NCBI RefSeq assembly: GCF_000315625.1
Contig: NW_005434536.1
Coordinates: 1 to 64,000 of the forward strand
Reading direction: 5' to 3'
DNA: 64,000 nt
Source of the DNA: Guillardia theta CCMP2712
Lineage: Eukaryota > Protista > Cryptophyta
In this document: piece after piece, positions 3,001 to 24,233 of the stretch
Layout: each line of letters starts with the position of its first letter
Numbering within the stretch: position 1 is the first letter of the stretch
Program-made: the position numbers and the translations under genes
The notes under the pieces: generated by a model
Database searches by the model: none
Told to the model about the DNA's origin: nothing
Seen by the model: only the letters and a program-made list of their open reading frames with translations

Positions 3001-5597
3001 CCCGGCTGACAGGCTCACCTGACCGGTCACGTGACACATCACGTGACCGAGACAAGACTTTTTTATATCGCAGATCCCAAAACCCATAGGACATTTCTCC
3101 CAGGGGGAAGAAAACCTCCCTTGACCCCCCTGTTTCTCGACGGATCCTGCCGGCCGGGCCCGTCAGTAGACCGACTGCAGCCTTCAGCCCCGCCTCAGAC
3201 CCCCTGGAGGCCCGCCAGGAGGCTAAGTGTCCGGAGATTGGCCGGGGGCCTGATCTCTCCGGGCGGCCGTGACCGGTCAGCGGACCGTGTCAGCAGGCCC
3301 GTGACATGTCAGCCGGCTGACAGGGGCCGTGACCCGGCTGGACAGGCTCACCTGACCGGGTCACGTGACACATCACGTGACCGAGACAAGACTTTTTTTA
3401 TATCGCAGATCCAAAAACCCATAGGACATTTTCTCCCAGGGGGAAAGAAAACCTCCCTTGAACCCCCCCTGTTTCTCGACGGGATCCTGCCGGCCGGGGC
3501 CCGTCAGTAGACCGACTTGCAGCCCTTCAGCCCCGCCTCAGACCCCCTGGAGGCCCGCCCAGGAGGCTAAGTGGTCCGGGAGATTGGCCCGGGGGCCTTG
3601 ATCTCTTCCTGGCGCCGTGATCCGGTCAGCCGGAACTGTTGTCATCAGGCCCGTGAACATGTCAGCCGGCTGACAGGGTCCGTGACCCGGCTGACCAGGN
3701 NNNNNNNNNNNNNNNNNNNNNNNNNNNNNNNNNNNNNNNNNNNNNNNNNNNNNNNNNNNNNNNNNNNNNNNNNNNNNNNNNNNNNNNNNNNNNNNNNNNN
3801 NNNNNNNNNNNNNNNNNNNNNNNNNNNNNNNNNNNNNNNNNNNNNNNNNNNNNNNNNNNNNNNNNNNNNNNNNNNNNNNNNNNNNNNNNNNNNNNNNNNN
3901 NNNNNNNNNNNNNNNNNNNNNNNNNNNNNNNNNNNNNNNNNNNNNNNNNNNNNNNNNNNNNNNNNNNNNNNNNNNNNNNNNNNNNNNNNNNNNNNNNNNN
4001 NNNNNNNNNNNNNNNNNNNNNNNNNNNNNNNNNNNNNNNNNNNNNNNNNNNNNNNNNNNNNNNNNNNNNNNNNNNNNNNNNNNNNNNNNNNNNNNNNNNN
4101 NNNNNNNNNNNNNNNNNNNNNNNNNNNNNNNNNNNNNNNNNNNNNNNNNNNNNNNNNNNNNNNNNNNNNNNNNNNNNNNNNNNNNNNNNNNNNNNNNNNN
4201 NNNNNNNNNNNNNNNNNNNNNNNNNNNNNNNNNNNNNNNNNNNNNNNNNNNNNNNNNNNNNNNNNNNNNNNNNNNNNNNNNNNNNNNNNNNNNNNNNNNN
4301 NNNNNNNNNNNNNNNNNNNNNNNNNNNNNNNNNNNNNNNNNNNNNNNNNNNNNNNNNNNNNNNNNCAGGCTCACCTGACCGGTCACGTGACATATCTAGT
4401 GACCGATACAAGACTTTATTATATCGCAGATCCAAAATCCCATATGACATTTCTCCCAGGGGCAGAAACCCTCTCTTGACCCCCCTGTTTCTCGACGGAT
4501 CCTGCCCGCCGGGCCCGTCAGTAGACCGACTGCAGCCTTCAAGCCCGCCTCAGACCCCCTGGAGGCCCGCCAGGAGGCTAAGTGTCCGGAGATTGGCCGG
4601 GGGCCTGATCTCTCCGGGCGGCCGTGACCGGTCAGCGGACCGTGTCAGCAGGCCCGTGACATGTCAGCCGGCTGACAGGGGCCGTGACCCGGCTGACAGG
4701 CTCACCTGACCGGTCACGTGACACATCACGTGACCGAGACAAGACTTTTTTATATCGCAGATCCAAAAACCCATAGGACATTTCTCCCAGGGGGAAGAAA
4801 ACCTCCCTTGACCCCCCTGTTTCTCGACGGATCCTGCCGGCCGGGCCCGTCAGTAGACCGACTGCAGCCTTCAGCCCCGCCTCAGACCCCCTGGAGGCCC
4901 GCCAGGAGGCTAAGTGTCCGGAGATTGGCCGGGGGCCTGATCTCTCCGGGCGGCCGTGACCGGTCAGCGGACCGTGTCAGCAGGCCCGTGACATGTCAGC
5001 CGGCTGACAGGGGCCGTGACCCGGCTGACAGGCTCACCTGACCGGTCACGTGACACATCACGTGACCGAGACAAGACTTTTTTATATCGCAGATCCAAAA
5101 ACCCATAGGACATTTCTCCCAGGGGGAAGAAAACCTCCCTTGACCCCCCTGTTTCTCGACGGATCCTGCCGGCCGGGCCCGTCAGTAGAGCGACTGCAGC
5201 CTTCAGCCCCGCCTCAGACCCCCTGGAGGCCCGCCAGGAGGCTAAGTGTCCGGAGATTGGCCGGGGGCCTGATCTCTCCGGGCGGCCGTGACCGGTCAGC
5301 GGACCGTGTCAGCAGGCCCGTGACATGTCAGCCGGCTGACAGGGGCCGTGACCCGGCTGACAGGCTCACCTGACCGGTCACGTGACACATCACGTGACCG
5401 AGACAAGACTTTTTTATATCGCAGATCCAAAAACCCATAGGACATTTCTCCCAGGGGGAAGAAAACCTCCCTTGACCCCCCTGTTTCTCGACGGATCCTG
5501 CCGGCCGGGCCCGTCAGTAGAGCGACTGCAGCCTTCAGCCCCGCCTCAGACCCCCTGGAGGCCCGCCAGGAGGCTAAGTGTCCGGAGATTGGCCGGG
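1..5597. repeat. Tandem array of a 332-bp GC-rich, palindrome-rich unit (~17 unit lengths including the gap; probably continues left of the window)
   Basis: The same unit recurs in register at 36, 368, 703, 1035, 1365, 1696, 2028, 2360, 2692, 3031, [gap], 4386, 4718, 5050 and 5382. Copies are near-identical with a few indels and one recurrent SNP (GTAGACC/GTAGAGC). The last partial unit ends at ...GAGATTGGCCGGG (5597). Confidence 0.99.
3700..4365. other. Assembly gap (666 N) inside the tandem array
   Basis: Run of N. The flanking repeat copies degrade toward the gap, as low-quality read ends do. Gap length is about two repeat units. Confidence 0.99.
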
Positions 5598-7820: not shown

Positions 7821-8543
7821 ATGCCGGGCCGGCCTCAGATGAGTGTGTCGGATTTTGTATCAGAGCTGCGCGGCATCGTGTGTGCGACGAAGGATGTGGC
7901 GGTGGAGGAGGAGATTTGTGAGTCTACCTCATGCTTCAGCACATATGAGAACTTCAAGGATTACTGCTGCAACAAGGCCTTTGAGGTCATCGGGGACGAC
8001 AACCAGTACAAGCGGTACTTCTCTCAATGCAAGGAGAACGCCGATGTCTGGGCGATCAAGGTTCACGCGGGGGTGCAGCAGGTGATGGGAGACATCAAGT
8101 CTGTGCAGGCCATGGTGGAGACGCTGCAGACACAGGGGAAGGAGAAGCTGTACCGTCTCTGCCTGGAGGTGATGACGAGCTCCGCACCCCCCGTACGACG
8201 GAAGAATGGGTGGTTCATCTGCAGCATCTCGGGAGCCAGGTCGGACATGTGCGTGGAGGTGGGAAGGCAGGGGAAGGATTCATTCTCGATTGTGGTTCAC
8301 CAGAAGTTCTCCCCCTTTATCCTCTATCTGTGGTTCTGCTGCAAGATCGAGCACATCGTCAAGAACCAGGTGCGGGTATGGGTCGGGAGACAGGACACCG
8401 ACGAAGTCGACCAGCTTTGCAGGCTCTTCCAGGATGACGACGCCCTCGTGCAGAGGTGGTACAGCATCTTCCGCTGCTCCGTAGCCCATGTAAAGCTGTC
8501 TATATTGAAGGAGTCTAGGAGCCACTCCGTAGGTATTTCATAG
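7821..8543 (+). CDS. Hypothetical Cys-rich protein (240 aa; start may be 7839)
   Basis: Long ORF with coding-like composition; stop lies 1 nt from the convergent gene. Confidence 0.8.
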   Translation: MPGRPQMSVSDFVSELRGIVCATKDVAVEEEICESTSCFSTYENFKDYCCNKAFEVIGDDNQYKRYFSQCKENADVWAIKVHAGVQQVMGDIKSVQAMVETLQTQGKEKLYRLCLEVMTSSAPPVRRKNGWFICSISGARSDMCVEVGRQGKDSFSIVVHQKFSPFILYLWFCCKIEHIVKNQVRVWVGRQDTDEVDQLCRLFQDDDALVQRWYSIFRCSVAHVKLSILKESRSHSVGIS

Positions 8544-8544
8544 A

Positions 8545-9258
8545 TTATGTGTAAGACAAATGGCCGTGCCGGAGCCGGTCCATGTCCACCCTCCTGCAGT
8601 GAGGCCTGATGATGTGGTAGAGGTCGCTGGGAGTGCAGAGCCGGCTGTTCTCGCTGATCAGCCTCCAGAGCAGCTTCTTCCGCTGGATTGGGCTCTCGTC
8701 AATGAGCGCCCCGGCGAGTTCGTCGTTGTGCAGGCTGTTGCGCAGGGCGAGGACAAAGGCCTGGGAGCAGAAGACCTTCTTGACCTGAAGAGAGCTTTCG
8801 TTGGGGACGTCCTCGAAGAATCCGCTGTCCGGGAGGACGGTCTTCAGCGGTTGGTACAGCAGATCGGCGAGGTTGTACGGCACGCGGCGCTCCACCAGGT
8901 CGATGGCGTAATCGAAGAGCTTCGTGCTTTCTACTGGATCGAGGCGAAGGTGCAGTCCCTCATAGTCCCGACTGTTGTAGGACTTTCGCATGTTCACCGA
9001 CATGCTGAAGTGCTCGCCCATGAAAGTGGTGAGGCTCGGGCTGTCGTTGGGCTTCTCTTCCCGATGCACGTACAGGTCCACGTGTGCAAAGGGGCCCGTC
9101 ATGAGCTTGATGATCCGGTCGGATAGCATCACCGGCCGCCGGAAGACGAAGACACACTGGATCGGGCTCTTGCGCATGGGGTTGTCGCCGCTTGACTCTG
9201 GTGGGGGCTTCGTCGCCTCCTCCCCGTCCTCCTCACCGATGCTGAAGTTCGGTTTCAT
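8545..9258 (-). CDS. Permuted papain-like (NlpC/P60-related) amidase/peptidase (237 aa)
   Basis: His-before-Cys order with family motifs: GPFAHVDL, VPYN, VFCSQ, CTPSDLY. A TATA-like element ~30 nt upstream of ATG 9258 supports this start (the ORF extends to 9321). Confidence 0.8.
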   Translation of the reverse strand: MKPNFSIGEEDGEEATKPPPESSGDNPMRKSPIQCVFVFRRPVMLSDRIIKLMTGPFAHVDLYVHREEKPNDSPSLTTFMGEHFSMSVNMRKSYNSRDYEGLHLRLDPVESTKLFDYAIDLVERRVPYNLADLLYQPLKTVLPDSGFFEDVPNESSLQVKKVFCSQAFVLALRNSLHNDELAGALIDESPIQRKKLLWRLISENSRLCTPSDLYHIIRPHCRRVDMDRLRHGHLSYT

Positions 9259-9365
9259 TTTGGTGCGCTCGCTCTCCCATCTTATGTATATAGACACAGA
9301 GGCTCTGTTGGGAGAATCCATTTAAGGTTATTAAAACAAGGAATCGGCAAGGTACTACGGGTGTG

Positions 9366-9905
9366 ATGGATGATACGAATCTGCGGTTGCAAAACCTTGA
9401 AGAAAAGTTAGATTATATGAATCAAATCATTCAATCACACCAGACCCGCTTGGATGCGGTGAATCCTGTACTTGATTTTTTCAATCAAATGCAACATAAG
9501 ATAAACGAATTTAATAAGCAGCATCATATACCACTCAATGAAAAGCTAGAAGAAATCTTTGTTGCGGTGGAGCGCGTTGATCAAAACTTGGATAACCTGA
9601 AGAAAATACTTGAATTTGTGGATCTTTGCGCAAAGGAGCAGCACGCTCAAAGCAACGCGGGCGATGCAGAACCATCAAAGGATATACAGGACCGTGTGTA
9701 CAGACTGGAGCACGAGTATAACTCGTTGAAAATGGCTGTAGATGGGATCGTCAAGATGAAAGATGACATTAAGCATATTCTCACTGTGTCGGGTTCGATC
9801 AACTCCGATGATAGACTTCTATTCGCCCAACTTGGTGTCATCCGCTCGGACCTTCAAGACGTGGCTTCGACTTTCCGGGACTACCAAAACGGAATGTACC
9901 GCTAA
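9366..9905 (+). CDS. Hypothetical coiled-coil protein (179 aa)
   Basis: Heptad-rich ORF; AT-richer than its neighbours; overlaps the convergent gene by 4 nt. Confidence 0.7.
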   Translation: MDDTNLRLQNLEEKLDYMNQIIQSHQTRLDAVNPVLDFFNQMQHKINEFNKQHHIPLNEKLEEIFVAVERVDQNLDNLKKILEFVDLCAKEQHAQSNAGDAEPSKDIQDRVYRLEHEYNSLKMAVDGIVKMKDDIKHILTVSGSINSDDRLLFAQLGVIRSDLQDVASTFRDYQNGMYR

Positions 9906-10603
9906 GGGTGCTTGTGAATATCAACCAACAGGCGGTCCATGCTCTTCCCCCTCCTCTCGGGCTCTTCGGTCTCGTTGGCATGCTTGTCTTCGGCAGCTTT
10001 CTCGTCGTGCTCCTGTCTCACGGCGACGGAGGGGAGGAGGATGCCGGGCTCGGGGGTGTGGCAGCAGTGGGCCTGCGTGTGCCCCGGTCCCTCGGACCTG
10101 ATCCAGGCGGCGTAGCGCTCGGGATCGACGACCTTGCCCTTCATGAACCTCAGGCTGGTGTAGACGTTGACGATGAGGTCGGCGCAGATGCGGATGATGA
10201 GGAAGTCGACCTGGGAGAGCATGACGAAGAGCGCGAAGACGTTCATGACGCAGCAGTACAGCGCCCAGATCTGCGTGATCATGATGCAGGTAAATTTCGA
10301 GTAGGGGAGGAACTTGGTTTTGTGGTCCTGGATGGTGTTCTGGATCCAAGGGGAGATAGCGTCACCGACAAAGTCGTTAATGGAGGTCGAGACGAAGGTG
10401 AAGACGGCGACGCAGTTCCACTTGTACCAGCTGTTGATCTCCACGCCCATGATCTTGGAGTGCTCACCCGGCCCAAGCGTCATGAAGTTCGAGTCCGTCA
10501 CCCCGAGCTCGGAGAAGATCGCCAGCACCATCACCATCCAGGTCATCAGGAGGACGCAGGTCAGCCTCTTGTCCTCGAAGAGGCGGTGGAGGAGGTAGAT
10601 CAT
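9902..10603 (-). CDS. Multi-pass membrane protein (233 aa)
   Basis: About four hydrophobic segments. The pattern FMTLGP...INSWYKW...PWIQNTIQD resembles, from memory and unverified, an uncharacterised membrane family of large DNA viruses. Confidence 0.8.
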   Translation of the reverse strand: MIYLLHRLFEDKRLTCVLLMTWMVMVLAIFSELGVTDSNFMTLGPGEHSKIMGVEINSWYKWNCVAVFTFVSTSINDFVGDAISPWIQNTIQDHKTKFLPYSKFTCIMITQIWALYCCVMNVFALFVMLSQVDFLIIRICADLIVNVYTSLRFMKGKVVDPERYAAWIRSEGPGHTQAHCCHTPEPGILLPSVAVRQEHDEKAAEDKHANETEEPERRGKSMDRLLVDIHKHP

Positions 10604-10670
10604 GTCCCGCTTTTTATGAACTTACCGTCTCTGGTCTCGCCTAATTATATCCCCGAGTATGCGATAACTA

Positions 10671-10708
10671 AACACGGCAGCCACTTGGTCTCGCCTGCAC
10701 CCTCTCCA
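10671..10708 (+). repeat. 38-bp direct repeat, copy 1
   Basis: AACACGGCAGCCACTTGGTCTCGCCTGCACCCTCTCCA; 34/38 identical to 12600-12637, with the last 22 bp identical. Confidence 0.9.
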
Positions 10709-10785
10709 TCATCTCGTTGAGCGTGCGCTCGGGATGTGGACGACGCTGCACACGCTCTGGATAATGATGTTGCAGATATTGTTAA

Positions 10786-12474
10786 TTAAGTATATTGAGC
10801 TGGAATCATAAGTCTTACGGCTTTCGTCTCAAATTGATTTGGGAATGCGGCGTGTAGATTGTTTTTTGTTGGCTCAGATTTACAACAGATAACAAGCAGA
10901 AAGATGCCAATAATTACGGAAAACAGTATGGTGCTGGTAACACAGAAAGCATTTGTTCCAGTATGTTGCGCACTGATTGATTGAACATATCGTATATTGA
11001 TCGGTGCGACCGTTTGATTCGAATTCATATCGCACACCCCAGGAAATGTATCGTTGCAATCCGATGCATTTGTCCACCCACTGCATAGTGAGCATCTATA
11101 TGTTCTGCTGCATGTCTTATTGCTCAAGTTTGTACCAGGACCGCATGATTCTATGTCAGGGTTACATGTCTTGCCGTTTAAAGTGGTACCTTTTCCGCAG
11201 CTCTGGATGACAGACTCACAAGTCTTTCCTAATAAAGCAGTACCTGCTCCGCAGCTCTCGATAGTAGCATTACAGGCACTTCCAACACATTCTCCTGTAG
11301 TAGAATCCAATGTGGTTCCTTCTCCACAGCTCTGGATTGCAGACTCACAGGTTGTTCCTAATAAAGCAGTACCTGCTCCGCAGCTCTGGATCGTAGCATT
11401 ACAGGCACTTCCAGTAGAGTACGTCCCTGGACCATAGCTTATTGATGAAACACATTCTGCTGTAGAAGAATCCAATGTGGTTCCTTCTCCACAGCTCTGG
11501 ATTGCAGACTCACAGGTTGTTCCTAATAAAGCAGTACCTGCTCCGCAGCTCTGGATAGTAGCATTACAGGCACTTCCAGTAGAGTACGTCCCTGGACCAT
11601 AGCTTATTGATGAAACACATTCTGCTGTAGAAGAATCCAATGTGGTTCCTTCTCCACAGCTCTGGATCGTAGCATTACAGGCGCTTCCAGTAGAGTACGT
11701 CCCTGGACCATAGCTTATTGATGAGATACATTCTCCTGAATTTGAATCCAATGTGGTTCCTTCTCCACAGCTCTGGATTGCAGACTCACAGGTTGTTCCT
11801 AATAAAGCAGTACCTGCTCCGCAGCTCTGGATAGTAGCATTACAGGCGCTTCCAGTAGAGTACGTCCCTGGACCATAGCTTATTGATGAAACACATTCTG
11901 CTGTAGAAGAATCCAATGTGGTTCCTTCTCCACAGCTCTGGATTGCAGACTCACAGGTTGTCCCTGATAAAGAAGTACCTGATCCACAGCTCTGGATGGC
12001 AGACTCACAGGTTGTACCTGATAAAGCAGTACCTGCTCCACAGCTCTGGATAGTAGCATTACAGGCACTTCCAGTGGAGTACGTCCCTGGGCCATAGCTT
12101 ATTGACGAGATACATTTTCCTGAATTTGAATCCAATGTGGTTCCTGCTCCACAGCTTACAGACGAAACACATTGTCCTGTAGCAGAATTCAATGTAGTTC
12201 CTGTTGCACAAGAAATAGGCGTACATTGATTGCTAACACATGTAGTATATTGATTTGGACAACATAGAGTTGTTCCGCAAGCCGAGTAACCTGTTACTAT
12301 ATCACAACTTGAATAACATCGAATCAAAATTGGATCACACTTTTGTGAACTTTGACAGCAGGTGTACGAGGAACCGGTTCCACATTGGATATAGTTAACC
12401 GGACATTGACATCTACTTTCTGGTAATATCATGATCAGAATGAGGAGGGAGTAGATGATATGCATTTTATCCAT
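10786..12474 (-). CDS. Type I membrane surface glycoprotein with Cys/Gly/Thr tandem repeats (562 aa)
   Basis: N-terminal signal peptide; ~20 repeats of 18-19 aa; TM segment FCVTSTILFSVIIGIFLLVICC; short tail; TATA box at 12497-12506. Confidence 0.9.
   Translation of the reverse strand: MDKMHIIYSLLILIMILPESRCQCPVNYIQCGTGSSYTCCQSSQKCDPILIRCYSSCDIVTGYSACGTTLCCPNQYTTCVSNQCTPISCATGTTLNSATGQCVSSVSCGAGTTLDSNSGKCISSISYGPGTYSTGSACNATIQSCGAGTALSGTTCESAIQSCGSGTSLSGTTCESAIQSCGEGTTLDSSTAECVSSISYGPGTYSTGSACNATIQSCGAGTALLGTTCESAIQSCGEGTTLDSNSGECISSISYGPGTYSTGSACNATIQSCGEGTTLDSSTAECVSSISYGPGTYSTGSACNATIQSCGAGTALLGTTCESAIQSCGEGTTLDSSTAECVSSISYGPGTYSTGSACNATIQSCGAGTALLGTTCESAIQSCGEGTTLDSTTGECVGSACNATIESCGAGTALLGKTCESVIQSCGKGTTLNGKTCNPDIESCGPGTNLSNKTCSRTYRCSLCSGWTNASDCNDTFPGVCDMNSNQTVAPINIRYVQSISAQHTGTNAFCVTSTILFSVIIGIFLLVICCKSEPTKNNLHAAFPNQFETKAVRLMIPAQYT
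11110..12213 (-). repeat. Intragenic mosaic array of 54/57-bp units
   Basis: Three unit types (SCGAGTALxGTTCESAIQ, SCGEGTTLDSxxxECxSSI, SYGPGTYSTGSACNATIQ), each near-identical at the DNA level. Confidence 0.95.
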
Positions 12475-12496
12475 TTATTGAATATATGCGGGTTTT

Positions 12497-12506
12497 CTTT
12501 ATATAG
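12497..12506 (-). promoter_or_regulatory. TATA box
   Basis: CTATATAAAG on the minus strand, ~25-30 nt upstream of ATG 12474. Confidence 0.6.
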
Positions 12507-12599
12507 ACGAGCCATCAGCGGTGGACTGGCATCACGCGTGTGATAGGTGCCCGCGTCGCAAATGGTCTCCGTCCACGCGCTGGCAAGAAGGGAGGAAGC

Positions 12600-12637
12600 A
12601 ACACAGCAGCCATCCGGTCTCGCCTGCACCCTCTCCA
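12600..12637 (+). repeat. 38-bp direct repeat, copy 2
   Basis: AACACAGCAGCCATCCGGTCTCGCCTGCACCCTCTCCA. Confidence 0.9.
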
Positions 12638-12650
12638 AACTAACTCGATC

Positions 12651-14542
12651 TTACTTACCGCTAGGGGGTAGGTAGACGAAGATGTCGACATTGTGCTTGT
12701 CCATGTAGCGGCAGAGGAGGCGGAGCATGTGTATCGACCTGTAATCGATGCTGTTCTCGTGCGCGTAGTTCTTCATGTCATCCCAGAATGTCTCCTGCTT
12801 GAGAAGGTCCTTCGGGGTGAAGATGAATGGATTCTCGCGCATCTTCGGCTCGACGGAGGAGGCGGGCGGGGCTGGCAGCGCCTCCATTGCGATCTCCGAC
12901 TCGGCAAACAGGAGGGGGTTGCGCACGCAGATGGGCAACTGGTAATTGCTGGCGGTTCTCAAGACCTCCTGTGAGAGGAAGAAGTAGTAGCGGCAGCGGA
13001 CATCGTCAGAGTAAAGCTTGAGCTGTTCCCAGAAATCCTTGTCTGCCTTGAAGTCGTCGAGCTTGTACTTGATGTCATCTTGCCACTCGGAGAAAGAAGT
13101 CAGGTACTTGTCGAGGTCGGTGACGAACTGGAAGTGGGGGTTCCAAATGCACTCGACCTTCCAGTTGATGGCAATCTTGCATACATCGACGATCAGGCGG
13201 AGATGGGCCATTATGGCGCAGGCCTTGCGGCGGATATCAAAGACATGCAGATACAAGATGGAGTTCAATATGTGATCGTCCTGCGTGATGGCGATGGCGG
13301 TGCAGATGGCGATGATGTCCGACTCCGGAAGGTCGCGAACGTTGTGGACAGTGCTTGGGAAGGGGAGAGATTCCTTCTTCATGCTGCGCTCGATGAGGAA
13401 TACGACATGGTCGATGAATTTCTTCATCAGCGAGATGTTCTCGAGTCCCATGAAAGGCTTGGTAAGGTCCTGTGGGACTGCCCTGCGAATGACATCCTTC
13501 GTCTCTCCGTCGCTGATCCCGTCGTCTATGCACTTGTTGCCGTGCATGATGGCCAGGAAATACTCTGTCGGTTCGCGGATGGGGAAGACGCGCTCGACAA
13601 ACGGCTTGGGGCTGAGCAGGTGCTTCTCACTGATCTTCTGTGCGAGGGTGGTGGCAGATTGGAAGCATGCGTTGTACTTGTTCTCGTATGGGATATTCTC
13701 GACCTGGTCATCTCCCAAAGCCTCCATCTGACAGATGCACTCGTGATACTTGGCCGCGTCGTGCCCCCCAAGGATGTCCTCCTTGCTTTCGGTGGAGATG
13801 ATGTGCTGGGGGTAGCCATGCACCTTTCCGTCAAAGTTGATGGACCTCCGGATGATACCAGTGCTTTCGCCATCAAAGTCGGGGTAGAAGATTCCGCGTA
13901 CCTTCCCCGTGAAGAGTATGCCGATGTTGTCATCGTGACGGTAGAAGCTGATCGACTTCTCAATCGGGAGGTCCGAATGCCTGTGCAGGTGAATGACGCG
14001 AACGCTCTCGTACATCATCGTGCCGATAGAGGGTTGGCCGAAGAAGATGCAGGTGAGCTCGCGGCCAATCTCCCCGAATCTGCAGTAGACAAATGGACCA
14101 GCTCGGCGACGTTGCACGCGAAGGAGAATCCCGTGAAGGCAACGGTACCGGCAGGCTGCGCGCGGAGGAAGGAGGAGAGCTCGCCGAGCGCCGGCGATTC
14201 GATGAAGGTGCGGGCCAGCTCCGCGACGGGGGTGTGGACCTTGACGTTGATGCTCTTGTCACTCCACTTGGGCGAGACGGAACCGAGCTGGGTCAGTCCC
14301 CCGCGCTGAAGCATGCTGCGCTCCTCCTCCTCGTCGATGCCGAAGGAAATGACGATGTCACCGGCGGCGGTGCGAGCGGCGAAGGCGGTGACCGGTCCGA
14401 CGGTGAATTCCTGCACGCCGGTGATGGACGAGGGGAGGGGGAACTGGGATCTGTTGTACGAGTGGAGGGCGCAGTGGCCGTAGGCCGCGACCTGCGAATA
14501 GCGCACGATCCATTGATTGTGTGGCAGCGTGGCGGCACACAT
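12651..14542 (-). CDS. Class-3 lipase-like alpha/beta hydrolase with C-terminal helical domain (~630 aa once one frameshift near 14072-14075 is repaired)
   Basis: ORF 14015..14542 supplies VKVH and VAFTGFSFA (GxSxG-like). ORF 12651..14117 supplies FFGQPSIG, HSDLP and HDAAKY, in lipase-3 order. One extra G joins the two. Confidence 0.65.
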
Positions 14543-15499: not shown

Positions 15500-16048
15500 T
15501 CACAATTCCCTTGCCCTCTCCATGATCTCGTTCAGCGTCCGCCGGGGGATATGAACTGCGCTGCATACCCTTTGAAGGATGATGTTGCAGACCTTGTCCC
15601 TGACATGTGCTTTCATCCCCGTCCTCTCGGACTCCTTGGTGGCCTGGAAGAACTGGAAGATGACTTCGGATGTGTCGAGGTAGATGCGTTGCCCGTCGGG
15701 CTTCAGCGTTGCCATCCCGCCCCCGCCCATCTGCGTTGAAAGCGTCGCCCTGCTGTTCTCCTGCATAAATTGGAGGATTTCAAGAAGCAGGATCTTCTGC
15801 TCTTCCCGCATGCAGAAGAAGGGGAATATCGCCGTGTTGAAACCTTGAAATGGAGCCAGGCCAATCTTGGTGATGCTGATCCTGATTGGGGTAGATAGGA
15901 AAATGCAGATAGTGTGGGTGATCGGGTCTTGAACGTCCGAGGTGCAAGTGTTACACATGTAGACCATCATGTCTCTCAGGTTCTCCCCTTCCAGGAACAG
16001 CTCGATGAAGCGCTGGAAGAGATCCTTTTCCTTGTCTTCTTGCATCAT
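15500..16048 (-). CDS. Hypothetical protein (182 aa)
   Basis: ORF with coding-like composition, convergent on the previous gene. Confidence 0.75.
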   Translation of the reverse strand: MMQEDKEKDLFQRFIELFLEGENLRDMMVYMCNTCTSDVQDPITHTICIFLSTPIRISITKIGLAPFQGFNTAIFPFFCMREEQKILLLEILQFMQENSRATLSTQMGGGGMATLKPDGQRIYLDTSEVIFQFFQATKESERTGMKAHVRDKVCNIILQRVCSAVHIPRRTLNEIMERAREL

Positions 16049-16299: not shown

Positions 16300-17019
16300 A
16301 TGTCGTCGAAGGGCCAATCCAAGGGAAAGGCCGCTCCTACTCACCGTGTGCGGACTAAGATGCCGGATGTCTTCGAGTCGCAGGGTGTCATGTTCACTGC
16401 ATTCGAGCAGAGTCAGTACGATGAGACCTTTGATGTTAGCTATGGGTGGGAATTCAAGGACTGGTTCAAGACTGTGACATCGTCTGAAGAGAGTAAGCAG
16501 CACAATCATGTATTCTTTGTGAAGAAGAGTCCGATCACTGAGAAATGCTTTCCCTGCTTTGACATGGTTCCACCTGCTGCTTTCACCCTCAAGCACAACA
16601 TTCAAAAACTTCAGTGCCCTGAAAAATACAAAGAGAAGGAATTCCAAGCCCGTTGTATACTGTGCGGATTGGACGGGGACAGGGCACACAAGGGCTGTTC
16701 TATGGCATTGGTGACTCGGACTCTCACCAGGAAGGACAAATCATTCAGCGTGGAGAGTCTGAAGTATCCTACTGAGATCAAGAAATTCTTCGGTTTCTCT
16801 TTGTGCAGCCCGCATGCCAACCAGCTTGACGACTGTTGTAATGCTGTACTTATCAATATCGTGAAGCAGTGTATGAAGTCACACTCCGATGTTCTGGTCG
16901 ATACCCTCGTCTTTCGCAAACACAACGACGTTTTTGTCAAGGACATACCTAAGCGAACGGTGAAACCTGCGCTTGACTTGGTTAAGGAGAATCCGGAGCT
17001 CATACCTTCCTCATCGGAA

Positions 17020-17055
<36 letters not shown>

Positions 17056-17886
17056 GAGGATGGTGACGAAGGAAGTGATATTTTCTCTGCATTGGTACAG
17101 AAACAGAACAAGCTGAAGGAACAGGACAAGCAGCAGGAAGCTCCCAAGGAGCCCGCTGAAAAGGACAAGCAGCAGGAAGCTCCCAAGGAGCCTGCCAAGA
17201 AGGACAAGCAGCAGGAGCCTCCCAAGGAGCCTGCCAAGAAGGACAAGCAGCAGGAGCCTCCCAAGGAGCCTGCTGAGAAGGACAAGCAGCAGGAAGCTCC
17301 CAAGGAGCTTGCTGAGAAGGACAAGCAGCAGGAGCCTCCCAAGGAGCCTGCCAAGAAGGACAAGCAGCAGGAAGCTCCCAAGGAGCCTGCCAAGAAGGAC
17401 AAGCAGCAGGAGCCTCCCAAGGAGCCTGCCAAGAAGGACAAGCAGCAGGAGCCTCCCAAGGAGCCTGCCAAGAAGGACAAGCAGCAGAAAGCTATTTCAG
17501 AATCTGCCTCGAAGGATGATGAAATTTTCGACAATGCTCTGAATGTCATCATGAGAATGAAAAATAAGCTCAAGGACAATTCTATTGAGCAGGAGAAAGA
17601 GGAACTGATCAAGGAGAGCCGTGAACTGAAGCGCAAACTCGAGCAAGTGACCCAAGAGTACAACAAGCTGCAGAAGGTAACCGACAGTGTGATCAAGAAG
17701 TCGGACGAGATGAACAATTTCCTCCGTGCTAAGTACCGGCAGAGCTTAGAGCAGAACAAGGTAATCGAAGCTGAAAATGTAATGCTCAGGGCTAACCTGG
17801 TACTTTGTGATGAGAAGCTATCCGCTTTCCAGCATGTGGCACATGATCTTGACAAGTTCAGGGATTGCATCAAGCAGTCAAAGTAA
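16300..17886 (+). CDS. Hypothetical protein: Cys/His-rich domain, poly-Asp, 13-aa repeats, C-terminal coiled coil (528 aa)
   Basis: CILCG...HKGC...CSPH; D11 tract; nine DKQQE(A/P)PKEPA(K/E)K units; long heptad region. Confidence 0.85.
17020..17052 (+). repeat. (GAT)11 microsatellite encoding poly-Asp
   Basis: Read directly from the sequence. Confidence 0.95.
17125..17487 (+). repeat. 39-bp coding minisatellite, 9 full copies plus a partial
   Basis: GACAAGCAGCAGGA(A/G)(G/C)CTCCCAAGGAGCCTGCC-type units in tandem. Confidence 0.97.
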
Positions 17887-17976
17887 CTATGTGTGCGTGT
17901 TGTGTATGTACTTACCTTGTGGAGAGGAAGTATAACAGTCGTGATTAAAGCGTACCTTCAAAACACACTACTAGGG

Positions 17977-18654
17977 ATGTGGCCCATCGCCTACGATACC
18001 ATCCTTAATCTCTTCATATCCCGCGAGCGGGAGGAGCGAGAGGAGAGGAGGAGGAGGCAGGAGGAGGAGGCGCGCCAGACCCGTCTCATCTCACCCCTCC
18101 AGCTGCGTATGCAGGCAGTCAGGGGGGTGGAGCAGAGGAGGGAGGAGGGCATAAGGGACATGGATGGCTTCAAGCGAATGCAGATGTGCCGCGACGCGCT
18201 TTCGGCGATCGACCAGAGGGGTTGGAACCGCTCTTACCATCAGCGGGAGTTTCACAACGATTTCCTCCGAGCCTGTGCCCGTGTGTTCTGGAAGACAGAC
18301 CCGCACGGCCAGTTCAGCCGTGATCACCAGAGGATCTTGGAGCTCAACGGATGGGACCACCTCGCGCAGGAGATCCTTGTCAGCACGCCCCGTCGATTCG
18401 GCAAGACCATTTCCGTGAGCATGTTTGCGGCGGCGATGATGTTCTCGGCCCCTGGGGTGGAGGTGTCGATATACTCGACCTGTAAGCGCATCTCGCAAAA
18501 ACTCCTCCGCAACATACAGAAGTTCCTTTACATCATATACGAGCAGATGGGGGTACAGGCTTACAAGGTGATCCGTATGAACATGGAAGAGGTCGTTGTC
18601 CAGGGTCCTGAAAGCAGGCAGGATGTCAGGATTGTCAACTCCTATCCTTCCAAG
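17977..18654 (+). CDS. DNA-packaging terminase ATPase subunit, N-terminal part (putative exon 1, 226 aa)
   Basis: Q-motif RSYHQ; Walker A LVSTPRRFGKT (STPRRFGKT at 18382-18408; compare herpesvirus VPRRHGKT); motif IYSTCKRIS; ends IVNSYPSK at AAG|GTGATA. Walker B and the nuclease domain are missing. Confidence 0.85.
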
Positions 18655-18739
18655 GTGATACCCGCATGCCGCGCTTGTCTTGTACTTGTTACTGACCCAC
18701 CCGGAGCGGACGCGATCCGGTGTTGACTGACACTGGCAG
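18655..18739 (+). other. Predicted spliceosomal intron (85 nt), or the 5' part of a much longer intron
   Basis: Donor AAG|GTGATA; two ACTGAC branch-like motifs (18691, 18726); acceptor ...CACTGGCAG. Confidence 0.55.
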
Positions 18740-18858
18740 GTCGCTTACAACTTCAAAATTTATCGAAGAGGTGAAAAATTTCGAGTTTTACCTGAAATTA
18801 TTCGGGTGTTGAAATCTTTTTAAATTTCGATCAATTTTTTGAAATTTGTTTTTTTTTG

Positions 18859-18884
18859 GAAAGGCCACGGGGCCGTGGCTTTTC
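18859..18884 (+). other. Stem-loop flanked by T-runs
   Basis: GAAAGGCCACG-GGGC-CGTGGCTTTTC: 11-bp stem with one G-U pair. Confidence 0.55.
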
Positions 18885-19089
18885 AAGAACTTTTTTTTTA
18901 TTTCCCCTACCCCCACCCATAATTTCCCAATCGGGGGAGACTGGAAATGGGGGTGGTAATTGACTCTCCGCGGTATTTATTGGGGGCAGGGCGGTGAGTG
19001 GATTTTCAGAATTGCGCCGTCCGATGCTGCCACGCGCTCCGGATGGTAAGGCGGGTGGGTGTTACGCTGAGGTGAGCCTGCGCTTTAGT

Positions 19090-22000
19090 ATGACCAGTGG
19101 TATGTCTTATGCCAGCATTATAAGGGGTGATGCATGCTATGCCGAGGGTGGGGGGAGCGGGGTGGAGCCTTGCGGCGGAGGACCGCGGCAGCCGGAGGAA
19201 AGAGGGTGTGTGGAAGAAGAGGGTGCAGCTGGTACGGGGTGTGATATACAGCACGAGCTCGAGCTCGACGGGAACCTGGACATGAGTTTCCATCCGGACG
19301 GCTTCGGTGACTTCTTCGATACATATCCCGACGAGAGTGCAGGTTAATTGTTGATCCTTTCTTGATTTTTCTTTCTTGTTGCTTGTTTCTTGGATTCATA
19401 AATTATCTTACTATGTGTGATTGTCATCAGGACTCCCATTATTTTCAGATCAGCGCATATTTGAAGCGAGAAGCAGCGAGGCACTCCCTCCCCCTCCCCC
19501 AGCGGACCACTCAGAGGAGGATGAAGGGAGTGATAAGGACAATGAAGGTGAGAGATAGATGAATGGGGAGAAAATTTGATATGATATGCAATGCAGGTAA
19601 TACAAGCAAGAAGGAATTCATCGTTTTCAGAGATAAAGGTGTCACGGAATATGTGTGCTCAAACGACAAGAGCTTGCGCTCAAAACAGTCCGATTTCTTC
19701 ACGAAGAACAACAAGGAAATACGCTCGTTTCTTTCTGATGTCATGAATGGTCTGGAGTTTGACGGAGTCTTCAAAGATAAAGATTACGTTGTGATTGACT
19801 TCAATCGCTGCATGGGTATCGCCGGCCCCATCATTGCCCGCCTTCACCAGAAGCTGCTGATGGACAAGGATGGGGCAAAGTGTTGTGCCCGTCTGATCTC
19901 CTCCCTGAAGCAGATGCGAGAGGAGGACGTGCAGCACTCGGAGGCCAAGATTAAGCAGCTCGAGTGCCTCCGAGTCTGTGACATGGACTTCTTCAGCTAC
20001 CTCTGCTTTCTCCTCAGCCTGGGCTGCAACCGGAAGATCGACTCCATGGAGGGGAGTGCCATTTACAGTCGTCATATCGTCCCCTGTCTGCAGGAGCTTA
20101 CCTGCACCACACAGTTGGCCGATGTGGATGTGAGGAGCATCATGATGCTAGGCAGCTGGCACATGGTCAATGCCTTCCAGACCTGCTGCGTGAGCCGGAA
20201 GGGAATTGCCTCTATTTGGGGCAGCGTGTGCATCGCGGAGGAGAGGGCGATGGAATTCCTCCGCTCTATCGATATTATTTGCATTTACCGGGGGACGGGA
20301 ATCAAGGCCAACAAGCACCTTACTGAATACCGCACCATAGTGCAGAGGGCGGTGTGGACCACCGTCAACGGACTAATGGGCGTCTTCTACAAGAGAATGG
20401 AGGACGCGTGCGCCAAGATTCCAATCTCTTACATGCGGAAGAATCAGATGTCAGATGTGGGCATGCAGAGCTGCGTGAAGCTCTCTGATTACCTTTCCCT
20501 GTTACCCTTCACCGAATACATCCCTGCAGGTTACTACTACTTCACTCCGACGGAGAAGTACGCCTTCTTCGTGCAGGGCATATGCGCCATCACCACCTTC
20601 CACTTCGACGACTTGAAGCCGAGGGTGGAGATTTTTCTCTATGTCAAGAATTGCAAGATGCCCGGCACTCCTTGGACCATACCACTCCGATTCCTACTCT
20701 CCAAGGAAATGTGCACCTGGGTGGTCGACTGGAGACAGTTCCAGCATGAAATCTTCACCGCCGTCAAGCAGCGTCGTTGCATCATTATGCGGAAGGGCAA
20801 GGTCGATGTCAACTTTGTACCGGAGGAGCATTTTGTGAGGAATGGGAAGATTCCGCATGACGTGAAATCATACAAGGTTGTCAGCCAGTTTCAGACCAAG
20901 GAGACATGCATGTCGATTGTCGGGAATTTGAAGCTCCTTATTGGGAAGTCGGATTCGATGCTGTTTAACATCCGGGATGAGGCCAACCGACCCGCCCTTA
21001 CCGCCTACGGGAGCCATGCAGACGCCGTCTTCAACATCATGAGGGAGGCGGTAAAGTTTGAAGAGCTCGGTAAGCTCCGGGTCCTTCCCGAGGAGAGTCT
21101 ACAGAACGATGTCATCTTTACCAGATCCATCAGCGCATTGATAAGGAAGTTGTCCAGCTCCACCATGGTGAATCATGATAATTTGATCAGCATTTTGCGT
21201 CTTACCCTTGCCCTGTGTGACCGTGAAAATATTGGGAGGTGTATCTACGACAGCATCCGTGGTATCTTCGAGCAATTCTATTCCTCCCTCGAGTTTGGAG
21301 ATGGCAGCTGTATCCGTCTGGAGTTTGATGAAGAGAAGGTGCATGAGTTTGCCATCCTTTGCCTTGGCGCGGATGGTCCATCTGAAAAGGCACCACTTCC
21401 AGACAGCCATAAGCGCAAGGAGATGGAGTCAGGAACTCCCTCTGACAAGATCCCGCAGCAGTCGCCATTCAAGATTCCGAAATTGCCAACTTCCAATGTT
21501 TTGGAGCAGCCACCTTCAAAGGTCCCGGAGCAATCGTCGTCGAAAAACACTCCTGCCCCTGATGTACCTGAGACAGAATCATTTATTCATAAGGACGATA
21601 TTGTGCCCTGCGATCTGGTTGAAATCATCTTCCTACCGCAGGAAGAGGAAGTGATGGAGACTGAAGAAAAAGGATCCGACGAGCCTGCCCCGCGTGAAAA
21701 TGTCGAAGAATTGACGAATAACGCAGAGGTGCTACTGCAGAGCGCCAATCAGATCATGCAGCAAAAGACTTCGAATGAGCCATCCTTGAAGAAGAAGAAG
21801 CCATCAAAGGATGATCCTAGGATTGAAAAGCATGCCGCCATGATCAATGACTTCCTCGACAAGCTCAAGGTCGACGACAGGTTGCTGAAGCAAACCCTTT
21901 TCATGTGTCAGACGGACATGGTCTTCATGGGTTCGGACCTGGACTACTGGAGCCTGCGGAGCAAGAAGCTGGAGAAGGGAGACCCGCTTAACCTTCAGGA

Positions 22001-22208
22001 TGTCGTCGTCTGCTTTGTCCAGAGTTACACCATGAAAATGAACAAGATGAAGGTCGGGACTGACTTCCGCGAGCGTATGAAGAGCTTTTCAAGAGATGTG
22101 GTGAATGATAATCTCGAGTTCATGATGCATTCCTTCGACGAGACGATGGGGATATGTGACTACATGATCAACATTGCTCGGAAGAACATGAAGTTTATGA
22201 TCGTTTGA
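19090..22208 (+). CDS. Large hypothetical, probably nuclear protein; predicted three exons 19090-19342, 19431-19547 and 19597-22208 (~993 aa; 5' start uncertain)
   Basis: Two phase-1 GT-AG introns join ORF 18994..19347 to the 881-aa ORF in frame. NLS-like PSLKKKKP; Pro/Ser-rich linker. Confidence 0.75.
19343..19430 (+). other. Predicted spliceosomal intron (88 nt; alternative in-frame acceptor at 19448)
   Basis: CAG|GTTAAT...TCATCAG; very T-rich; contains an in-frame stop. Confidence 0.65.
19548..19596 (+). other. Predicted spliceosomal intron (49 nt)
   Basis: AAG|GTGAGA...ATGCAG|GT; AT-rich; contains an in-frame TAG; removal gives ...DNEG-NTSKKEF in frame. Confidence 0.7.
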
Positions 22209-22248
22209 GTCTATTTATTAATACTTATTGATGAATTGAAAAGAGAAG

Positions 22249-22638
22249 ATGAGCATGACCGATTCACAGATCGTGGGGGGCGTCCTGTGCTTCCTTCTTA
22301 CATCCATCGCATACTTCATGCTGTATTACATCTTTGTTTTCCCTGAACTCAAGAAGAGGGATTCGCAGGAGACTTATCTTAGTGTGTGGCACTGTCTGCT
22401 CACCCTCTTCATGGCGGGCGGCGTCGCCCTGACCTTCATTCTCTCCTCGAGCGCCAACGGGGAGCAGCAGCTCGCCTTCTACACAACCCTTGTCTTTGGG
22501 TTGGTGTACTTCTGTTGCAACGAGATCGGCATCACTATCCTTCGGCAGAGTTTGACCAAGCCCATCCCGGATCTGTCTCCCTTCTCCTGGGATGTCGTGC
22601 AGACATACCAGAGGAGGATGACGCGGGATGGGATCTGA
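22249..22638 (+). CDS. Small three-TM membrane protein (129 aa)
   Basis: Three hydrophobic segments; lies directly upstream of the portal-like gene. Confidence 0.75.
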   Translation: MSMTDSQIVGGVLCFLLTSIAYFMLYYIFVFPELKKRDSQETYLSVWHCLLTLFMAGGVALTFILSSSANGEQQLAFYTTLVFGLVYFCCNEIGITILRQSLTKPIPDLSPFSWDVVQTYQRRMTRDGI

Positions 22639-22685
22639 GATGGGGAGGGGATATAACAGCCGCGCGGGCGCCCTGCCCGAGATCG

Positions 22686-24233
22686 ATGGACGGTGGGGCT
22701 TACAAGCGCATGCGCATGTCGCAGGATGCGATGATGAGGAAGGAGAAGTTCAGGAGGCACGATGAGGAGGAGAGCTTCTGGCAGCTGATGGAGATGGCAA
22801 GCTACGAACCCGTCATCAATGTTTCCTTTTCGACGATACAGGCGATGTGCCTTTCAAGAGACATAGACGTTGTCGTCGATAAGAAGCCCAGCATCCCTGG
22901 ATTCAAGAAATTTTTGAATATGTATTACAAGCCCTTCCTTGCCCACTGCATCCGGAGCTTCTTCGTGTGCGGCTTCGCGGCCGTCCGCTTCCGCAGGCTC
23001 GCCAGCGGGGACATCGTGCCCGAGTGCCTCCCGCTCGGCAGCTTCCGCTGGACAGTTGTCGCCAACCCGATGAGGAGGGACGGACAGGGAAACGAAGGCT
23101 CCGGCGCAGACAACATCAAGCCCGACGCACAGGAGCCCGCGAGCAGGAAGACCTACCTCCCCAAGTTCACGCCCAGGGAGAGCGACGAGAGCAAGATGCT
23201 CCGCTACAAGATCACGGTGCTTACCGGCAATGTCAAGGAGAACGAGGTCTACGTCTACGAGTTCGTGCAGCCGACCTTCAACGTGTCGGGCAACTCCCGC
23301 TTCTACGCAACGGTCAGCAGCCCGATGGCGGGCCTGATCCATGAGTACCGGGACCTGCGCGAGGCGAGGGCGAGGCGCTCGATGGCCGACGCCTGGAACA
23401 CCAGGGCCCACGTCGTCTGCTCGCTCAAGGACAGCAAGATACCGACGGACCAGCCCAGGGAGAACTTCCTGGCCACCCAACTGACGCTACCCGCCGTCCG
23501 GGCCGAGCACAACCTCTTCCTGGCCAGCCTCGCCGAGGAGGAGGGTATGCAGGCAAGGAAGGTCACCGAGCAGATCGAGGAGGAGTTCCTGGAGAATTCA
23601 GGCAACCATCCCCCGCTCCTGCACATTCTCCCGAAGAACTACGACAGCCAGATGCTCGGCCAGTTGAACCCGGTCGAGGACATATCCCTTCTCTACAACC
23701 AGTGGACGAACTCAGTCTTCCAACTGTTCAAGATCCCGCCCAAGATGATGATCGGGAACCTGGGGCTCACCAAGGAGGCCGGCATGAACCAGCGGATATT
23801 CTCGGCCGAGATGCAGCAGCTCTGCATGCATCTGCGAGCCTTGGCCGGGAATGTCTACTCCATCATCTACGGGGAGGAAGACCCACACAGGGTCAACTTC
23901 GTCATCCAGCCCGCCCCTAAGATCGACGTCGAGAGCATCGAGGACCTCAAGATGCTCTTCGAGATCGGCTCGATCAAACCATCCACCGCTGCTAAACTGT
24001 CGGATACGCTCATCAACGCGGATAAGGACATCCTTGCGAGTGTGAACGGGAATATGGGTGGTATGGTCGGCGTCCCGGGAGAGATGGGGGCGATGAAGGA
24101 TCGGAATGAGTCTAAGGAGGACAGGGATGCCGGGAAGGTTACAAGGACCGAGCTCCAGTACCAGGCCCCGAAGAAGGCCACCCCCGCCAAGTTCGCGCCA
24201 CCGCCCAAGGAGCCAGTGAGTAAGAAGAAATAA
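22686..24233 (+). CDS. Portal protein, HK97-type fold (515 aa)
   Basis: Collinear portal-like pattern: EPVINVSFSTI; FLAHCIRSFFVCGFAAV..RR...GDIVPECLP; ILPKNYD; VFQLFKIPPKMM; IFSAEMQQL; LFEIGSIKPS. ATATAA at 22651 and AATAAA over the stop. Recognised by eye only. Confidence 0.7.
   Translation: MDGGAYKRMRMSQDAMMRKEKFRRHDEEESFWQLMEMASYEPVINVSFSTIQAMCLSRDIDVVVDKKPSIPGFKKFLNMYYKPFLAHCIRSFFVCGFAAVRFRRLASGDIVPECLPLGSFRWTVVANPMRRDGQGNEGSGADNIKPDAQEPASRKTYLPKFTPRESDESKMLRYKITVLTGNVKENEVYVYEFVQPTFNVSGNSRFYATVSSPMAGLIHEYRDLREARARRSMADAWNTRAHVVCSLKDSKIPTDQPRENFLATQLTLPAVRAEHNLFLASLAEEEGMQARKVTEQIEEEFLENSGNHPPLLHILPKNYDSQMLGQLNPVEDISLLYNQWTNSVFQLFKIPPKMMIGNLGLTKEAGMNQRIFSAEMQQLCMHLRALAGNVYSIIYGEEDPHRVNFVIQPAPKIDVESIEDLKMLFEIGSIKPSTAAKLSDTLINADKDILASVNGNMGGMVGVPGEMGAMKDRNESKEDRDAGKVTRTELQYQAPKKATPAKFAPPPKEPVSKKK

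Follow-up and report, generated by a model that had tools for sequence, protein, structure and literature searches.

Packaging genes in the window

We analysed a 64,000-nucleotide stretch of DNA (contig NW_005434536.1, positions 1 to 64,000 of the forward strand; hereafter the window) that carries on its + strand, separated by a gap of 4.0 kb, the first exon of a terminase large subunit (17977-18654) and an uninterrupted portal gene (22686-24233, 515 aa), which we assign to a mirusvirus, likely of the Styxvirales type. An initial annotation, made from the letters of the DNA, had described a PRRFGKT Walker-A terminase ATPase and a portal-pattern protein 4 kb apart among orphan genes, and these elements were all recovered: TPRRFGKT (Walker A) lies in the + strand open reading frame (ORF) 17977-18726, and the spacing is as described. 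Between the terminase ORF and the portal gene lie an 881-aa orphan gene (19563-22208, +) and two small ORFs. Searched on their own, the terminase ORF, the portal ORF and their neighbour genes gave no significant match in Pfam or PHROG.

For the portal protein, a search of 1.84 billion representatives returned 289 homologues, and an AlphaFold2 model was computed from an 88-sequence alignment (predicted local distance difference test score, pLDDT, 82.7; predicted template modelling score 0.75). Foldseek searches of the PDB with this model gave 41 matches at E ≤ 0.001 (best: lambda portal, E 1.6e-6), and among the matches listed all were portal or neck structures; against BFVD there were 189 matches, and most named rows among the top 50 were portals. 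VIA, an independent aligner, superposed the model on the portals of GBSV1 (Z 14.7; root-mean-square deviation, rmsd, 8.3; 290 aligned residues) and HK97 (Z 13.7; rmsd 5.4; 300 aligned), and scored herpesvirus portals at Z 8.3-8.4. The model thus shows a portal fold, as expected of Duplodnaviria, and a portal function would follow from the family. In the loci of relatives, the portal gene adjoins the terminase in 2 of 95.

The terminase call of the initial annotation was right as to homology, but 17977-18654 is a first exon of 226 codons and not a whole terminase: it encodes the N-terminal ATPase half, ends in NSYPSK, and lacks Walker B, the coupling motif and the nuclease. Homologues of similar length numbered 1,099, and nine were longer. 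Relatives at 33-42% identity were found in fifteen IMG/VR loci (contigs of 14-372 kb), thirteen of them as single frames of 567-681 aa; all five unsplit IMG/VR relatives tested exceeded the Pfam Terminase_6N cut-off, and a profile of these unsplit relatives matched T4 gp17 at E 7e-6. When aligned to full-length homologues, the window protein ends about six residues ahead of their Walker B (LRG-GGD-LEEAAF). Of the two halves of a Duplodnaviria terminase, the window therefore holds the ATPase first half but not the Walker B and nuclease half.

A model of the half ATPase (pLDDT 90.1) retrieved terminase ATPases in its seven top Foldseek rows (E 0.0055-0.039), ahead of helicases. PDB sequence searches with the half ATPase and with both window-based alignments gave nothing significant, so the terminase assignment comes from folds and full-length homologues only; a single-sequence scan of viral_contigs likewise returned no match. 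In tblastn searches of 50,697 phage records, neither terminase nor portal gave a match at E ≤ 1. The outcomes that the initial annotation had named as fatal to it (a model of 22686-24233 devoid of a portal fold, an ATPase closest to cellular helicases, nearest kin among prokaryotic phages) were thus not what we observed.

The terminase splice donor and the second half of the gene

The end of the terminase exon is conserved among relatives. NSYPSK or a close variant was present in 127 of 129 listed proteins, followed by Val in 118 of the 127 and by divergent sequence afterwards. At the DNA level, the donor motif was found in 79 of 80 metagenome loci, with GT directly after NSYPSK in 68, GC in one and AA in one; the other nine have AT at this point and GT four bases later. 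In these nine (L026, L027, L037-L039, L051, L061, L063 and L081), the donor appears to be shifted four bases downstream into Ile-Gly codons, so that the split point has moved within the clade. The pattern of a spliceosomal donor extends to +5 and +6, which are G in 41 and T in 37, respectively, of 65 non-redundant loci. The corresponding site in the window, AAG|GTGATA (18652-18660, +; cut at 18654/18655, just ahead of Walker B), is a putative trans- or long-range splice site, and such a spliceosomal donor agrees with the nuclear expression that had been proposed.

The description of the locus as intron-containing was overstated, because this donor is the only splice signal in the window with comparative support. 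The portal and giant genes are long open frames, and four other window genes with homologues in the fetched loci gave mostly single-stretch alignments. We also considered a local GT-AG intron of 85 nt at 18655-18739, which has CTGAC as a branch motif; it would add a 27-aa tail that lacks Walker B, and it was rejected as a conserved feature because similar acceptors occur in 5 of 61 relatives as against 12.4 in shuffles.

The second half of the gene was recognised in relatives. In 5 of 80 metagenome loci it lies downstream on the same strand, 0.2 to 3.3 kb away, and starts AG|IGTTKGTGGD; it was present in only 2 of the 19 loci with at least 5 kb of downstream sequence. The halves are 2.5-3.3 kb apart in L082 (10574-13092) and L056 (1979-5291), with at least two nested genes, an arrangement resembling a long cis intron. 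Exon-2 homologues of at least 329 aa lack Walker A in 49 of 52 cases, and the other three read through the junction as NSYPSKIGTTKGTGGD. These three natural unsplit relatives give the joined reading NSYPSKIGTTKG and fix both the junction and the frame.

No second exon was found in the window. Against its six frames, a profile of unsplit homologues gave no row at E ≤ 10, and one built on exon 2 of the clade itself reached E 7.1 at best; the best tblastn E among the matches listed was 0.16, and motif scans of the 64 kb returned nothing. The second half of this gene must therefore lie at a distance (over 45 kb downstream or over 18 kb upstream) or on another piece, unless it has been lost.

Three Baffinella gene models (P0006-P0008) fuse exon 1 to unrelated downstream sequence right after SYPSK, which is probably a gene-prediction artefact of an orphan donor.

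Relatives and affiliation

The named close homologues of the terminase exon belong to Hanusia phi, Guillardia theta and Baffinella frigidus and are labelled hypothetical or unnamed proteins, in agreement with the expectation that such an element would not be annotated as viral in its source assembly. A quick tree built on the ATPase core, with 72 rows (63 proteins plus 9 frames from loci), placed the window in a 17-row group with Hanusia and Guillardia rows (Shimodaira-Hasegawa approximate likelihood-ratio support 92), the closest rows being unnamed. Together, the named homologues and the tree group make a cryptophyte the likely host, which bears out the protist host proposed at the outset.

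Six GTDB contigs (L100-L105), all assigned to bacterial metagenome-assembled genomes, carry the terminase half. Since the donor recurs in five of the six (as AAG|GTA), three are interrupted at further points and two carry a candidate capsid gene, they are probably misbinned mirusvirus DNA.

Among 81 proteins picked from the loci of relatives we found TBP, heliorhodopsin, Snf7 and a Snf2-type helicase together with a weak RING match, and the first four are core functions of mirusviruses as described in PMC12768974. A 983-aa family that the window lacks is a neighbour of the terminase in 15 of 80 relatives; with an Atlas feature score of 0.90-0.91 to phage capsid clusters it is a candidate capsid protein, as a lead only. 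One IMG/VR record with an unsplit terminase also holds homologues of the portal and of this candidate capsid protein.

The portal fold, the terminase homology and the gene neighbourhood of the relatives bear out the earlier reading of the two genes as Duplodnaviria packaging genes of mirusvirus type. The window has packaging genes homologous to markers of Mirusviricota, in the context of a unicellular eukaryote, where we infer the mirusvirus identity of the IMG/VR records used for comparison. The prokaryotic Caudoviricetes fit poorly, as phage relatives were absent from the records searched and a spliceosomal donor is present. Within Mirusviricota, Styxvirales is the likely order, favoured because many contigs of relatives seem to come from fresh water (from contig names and run labels, uncounted), where Styxvirales were found and Okeanovirales were not (PMC12768974).

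Other genes and the repeat array

From 5.6 to 64 kb the window has a coding density of 93.5% and, with its giant intronless Cys-rich genes, looks viral. These giants form an array on the - strand (24251-63975) with Pfam matches to Ephrin_rec_like, EGF, F5/8 type C and NHL repeats. In 12 of 95 loci, homologues lie no more than 10 kb from the terminase, and an orthogroup shared by 524 mirusvirus genomes has members annotated with the ephrin-type Pfam family (PMC12768974); the giants are therefore probably viral rather than host flank, and likely encode surface or fibre proteins. One frame of 5,444 codons is intact. At three frame breaks (40605, 44665 and 49948), contigs have one base more than the window, as do 12 of 20, 6 of 13 and 10 of 12 reads, respectively, and the breaks may be assembly errors or differences between copies; mended by arithmetic, the frames would encode about 5,740 aa (41466-24251) and about 3,860 aa (53131-41545).

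The initial annotation had also pointed to TATA and AATAAA signals. TATA-like sites do lie upstream of the terminase exon (GTATAACAG, 17930-17938, +) and of the portal gene (ATATAACAG, 22651-22659, +), and AATAAA overlaps the portal stop. RTATAACAG occurs three times in the window, where 0.29 occurrences would be expected, but it was picked as a pattern after the two sites at 17930 and 22651 had been seen, and TATAAC stands upstream in only 2 of 74 relatives, that is, without conservation.

Several smaller genes have homologues in the related loci: a predicted membrane protein (9902-10603, -; beside the terminase in 10 of 95 loci at 38-50% identity), a small gene (15500-16048, -; near the terminase in 5 of 95) and two small convergent genes (7821-8543, +, and 8545-9321, -; distant homologues in 3 of 95 and 1 of 95). 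The last of these encodes a 258-aa protein with His and Cys motifs (HVDL and FCSQ), reminiscent of a permuted papain-like protease; it had no profile match, and a pairwise test against a related-looking locus protein was not significant. The 881-aa orphan had no significant Pfam, PHROG or Atlas match and no homologue in the 95 loci. The 528-aa product of a gene at 16300-17886 (+) combines an acidic tract with a 13-aa repeat in 9.4 copies and a coiled-coil tail, and matches no family. The sequence flanking a Cys-rich repeat gene (10786-12474) holds a direct repeat of 38 bp and, in addition, an 84-bp fragment that resembles the end of gene 15500-16048 (region 10623-12655); one contig skips 2,031 bases at 10623-12655, so another copy seems to exist without this gene.

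Pfam scans of the window revealed no TBP, heliorhodopsin, Snf7, Snf2, RING or histone gene, and no DNA or RNA polymerase gene was found among its 31 ORFs, the 58 kb covered comparing with a phylum mean genome of 265 kb.

The window opens with a 332-bp tandem array (5-5597, no strand; at least 14.7 copies, 98% identical, around a gap of 666 N). The repeat has 63% GC, several palindromes (CGGTCACGTGA..TCACGTGACCG and TGTCAGCCGGCTGACA) and a T6-ATAT box, and had no match in Rfam, the 95 loci or viral_contigs. It could be a viral end, an origin or a host satellite; we take it to resemble the terminal repeats of gammaherpesviruses.

DNA and RNA data

Window DNA was present in three studies, namely one 2021 run, four 2011 runs from one sample and a 2026 chromatin immunoprecipitation (ChIP) library with the same species label, and small shares of it occurred in two metagenomes. 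The earlier description of the element as integrated or persistent is thus borne out for persistence only. In the 2026 run, the unique part (19.5-24.2 kb) was covered at a depth of 11.6-15.7x from 1,004 million letters, which roughly fits one copy in a genome of 65-90 Mb, a size in keeping with the 54-99 million letters to which the contigs of the other runs add up.

Depth was about 1.5 to 3x higher over 5.6-16 kb, where many sites are near half-and-half. In three DNA data sets, the depth of the 18.6-kb segment 39139-57721 is two to three times that of its flanks; variants are almost lacking, and both borders have loose ends and alternative neighbours. The segment may have been duplicated recently, or viral copies may share it as a block. 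The uneven depth implies that several related copies share blocks.

An RNA run, sampled at 19.8 million reads or about 6% of its total, gave 46 reads on the window, 33 of them on 5.6-25.5 kb (5 at ≥ 99% identity) and 13 on 39.0-58.9 kb (11 at ≥ 99%), with no joints. This suggests that the element is near silent.

Interpretation and alternatives

We read the window as a fragment of a likely Styxvirales-type mirusvirus that likely resides as a stable, near-silent copy in a likely cryptophyte, with a portal gene, only the first exon of a terminase, and a donor that would be spliced to an exon outside the window (probability about 0.8). Its anatomy has close counterparts. According to Medvedeva et al. 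2025 (PMC12768974), trans-splicing of the terminase, confirmed in metatranscriptomes, occurs in most mirusviruses outside Demutovirales and Soporavirales. The Styxvirales and Okeanovirales described there share with the window a terminase split just before Walker B at canonical splice sites, an ATPase piece of about 750 nt, a portal nearest to those of HK97-type phages, giant ephrin-like genes, a low level of functional annotation, and relatives on freshwater and marine contigs. The complete Styxvirales genome Mirus_G_0022 repeats this anatomy, with a 744-nt terminase piece matching the T4 gp17 ATPase, a portal matching HK97 and intronless ephrin-like genes of 6-9 kb (PMC12768974). Those orders are described there from environmental genomes, whereas the window element comes from the DNA of a cultured organism and has a portal gene without an intron; 'Cryptophyt' is absent from the main text of PMC12768974, and Guillardia, Hanusia and cryptophyt from its searchable supplement files.

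Cryptophyte mirusviruses have been reported from a different gene. Clade E03 of Zhao et al. (PMC10827195) comprises 18 mirusvirus capsid homologues in three cryptophyte assemblies, including Guillardia theta, and was proposed as a source of isolation candidates; like the window element it is multi-copy and, as is likely for that element, of cryptophytes, but it is defined by the capsid gene, which the window lacks, and the available text of that paper does not mention a split terminase. Persistence in a cultured protist is likewise documented in Aurantiochytrium, where AurliV-1 is an episome and AurliV-2 a subtelomeric integrant (PMC12606086); persistent or integrated mirusviruses of that host are also described in PMC12911909. 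AurliV-1 and AurliV-2 belong to Soporavirales, outside the trans-spliced groups, and are expressed and particle-producing, whereas the window element gave almost no RNA in one run. Mirusvirus regions in eukaryote assemblies fall mainly outside Demutovirales (10.1101/2025.04.19.649669), and the episomes and the single chromosomal integrant of PMC12768974 belong to another order than those with split terminases. Cryptophyte mirusvirus capsid genes (PMC10827195) and trans-spliced terminases (PMC12768974) are therefore already published; we found nothing that connects the two in a cultured host. None of the papers retrieved links the orders with split terminases to hosts among the cryptophytes, subscription journals and the supplements of the Zhao preprint, which may cover the element, being outside the scope of the search.

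Several points weigh against this reading. The Foldseek E-values of the half ATPase fall short of a strict threshold of 0.001, and the tree came from a quick tree search only, with Baffinella falling outside the group of the window. Exon 2 of this element was never seen and could be lost, and no RNA read joins terminase exons among the 46 reads on the element from one RNA run. That run matches by species label only, with the strain unconfirmed and no positive control. The 2021 run (X1) is possibly the source of the window itself, and depth from a ChIP library and from contigs is a rough measure of copy number. The window yielded no identifiable gene for a capsid, triplex or protease protein, Pfam and PHROG scans showing no protease, and no host gene or host junction was recognised in it; what had been called a eukaryotic locus is therefore better described as a virus of eukaryote type.

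As to the state of the element, we consider chromosomal integration somewhat more likely than an episome. The case for integration is indirect, the depth being about one copy and the window holding neither a host gene nor a junction. The strongest rival, which we regard as unlikely though it deserves weight, is a free low-copy episome or persistent infection with the 332-bp array as viral terminus or origin. The densely coding 5.6-64 kb, in which no host gene was recognised, the intact long frames and the mirusvirus episomes known in other protists (PMC10827195, PMC12606086) would all suit it. Against it, the unique part is covered at about one copy per genome, and sharp depth steps inside the element (1x at 17.5-24.7 kb; 2-3x at 5.6-16 kb and at 39.1-57.7 kb) with alternative neighbours suit several fixed, partly recombined copies over one replicating circle.

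The element could instead be a decayed endogenous remnant in which the second terminase half and the capsid gene are gone and no particles can form, a reading for which we see a limited chance. It draws on the absence of exon 2 and of a capsid gene from the 64 kb, the three frame breaks in the giant genes, the 84-bp duplicated gene fragment, the 2-kb indel between copies and the near absence of RNA. Exon 2 is distant in most relatives too, however; the frame breaks may be errors of the window, given the extra base in reads and contigs; and the portal and the 5,444-codon frame are intact.

Herpes simplex virus, like the alloherpesviruses a virus of animals, has a UL15 gene of two exons. A terminase in separated exons is also common to alloherpesviruses (PMC12768974), and a herpesvirus-lineage virus of protists, or a new Duplodnaviria lineage outside Mirusviricota, could further claim a weak Pfam DNA_pack_N match (E 0.081) and the long branch to the unsplit IMG/VR terminases. 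This is very improbable: the gene neighbourhood and anatomy of the relatives match published mirusviruses, an unsplit terminase co-occurs with portal and candidate capsid homologues in the IMG/VR record described above, herpesvirus portals score below phage portals, and no homologue among the matches listed was named as herpesviral. A prophage or phage contig from a culture bacterium can practically be dismissed, since its two supports, the higher VIA scores of phage over herpesvirus portals and the terminase half on six bacterial contigs, are met by published mirusvirus portals that likewise match phage portals first (PMC12768974) and by the misbinned look of those contigs, while the phage records gave no tblastn match and the donor consensus is spliceosomal.

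Under our preferred reading, a resident Styxvirales-type mirusvirus, the element would be chromosomally integrated and silenced. On activation, host RNA polymerase II would transcribe its late genes in the nucleus from TATA promoters, and the host spliceosome would join two terminase RNAs at NSYPSK|(I)xTTKGTGGD into the message for one ATPase-nuclease of about 590 aa. This enzyme would dock on the portal ring and pump DNA into a capsid of HK97 fold whose gene would lie in another part of the element. In a bolder version, which we hold to be doubtful, a cultured cryptophyte carries an intact, latent provirus that can be reactivated, belongs to the mirusvirus orders with trans-splicing and without polymerases, and has the 332-bp units as a herpes-like terminal-repeat array at its bounds. 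If it were true, this would be the first laboratory host for those orders, and terminase trans-splicing and host-dependent replication of a large DNA virus would be directly testable.

Mirusviruses with split terminases abound in lakes and seas but have been described from metagenomes. With 1,099 homologues the environmental clade is large, and the finding gives it a probable host group as well as a culture in which trans-splicing, latency and nuclear replication could be tested. It also suggests that some of the 'hypothetical' and giant Cys-rich genes in cryptophyte annotations are viral.

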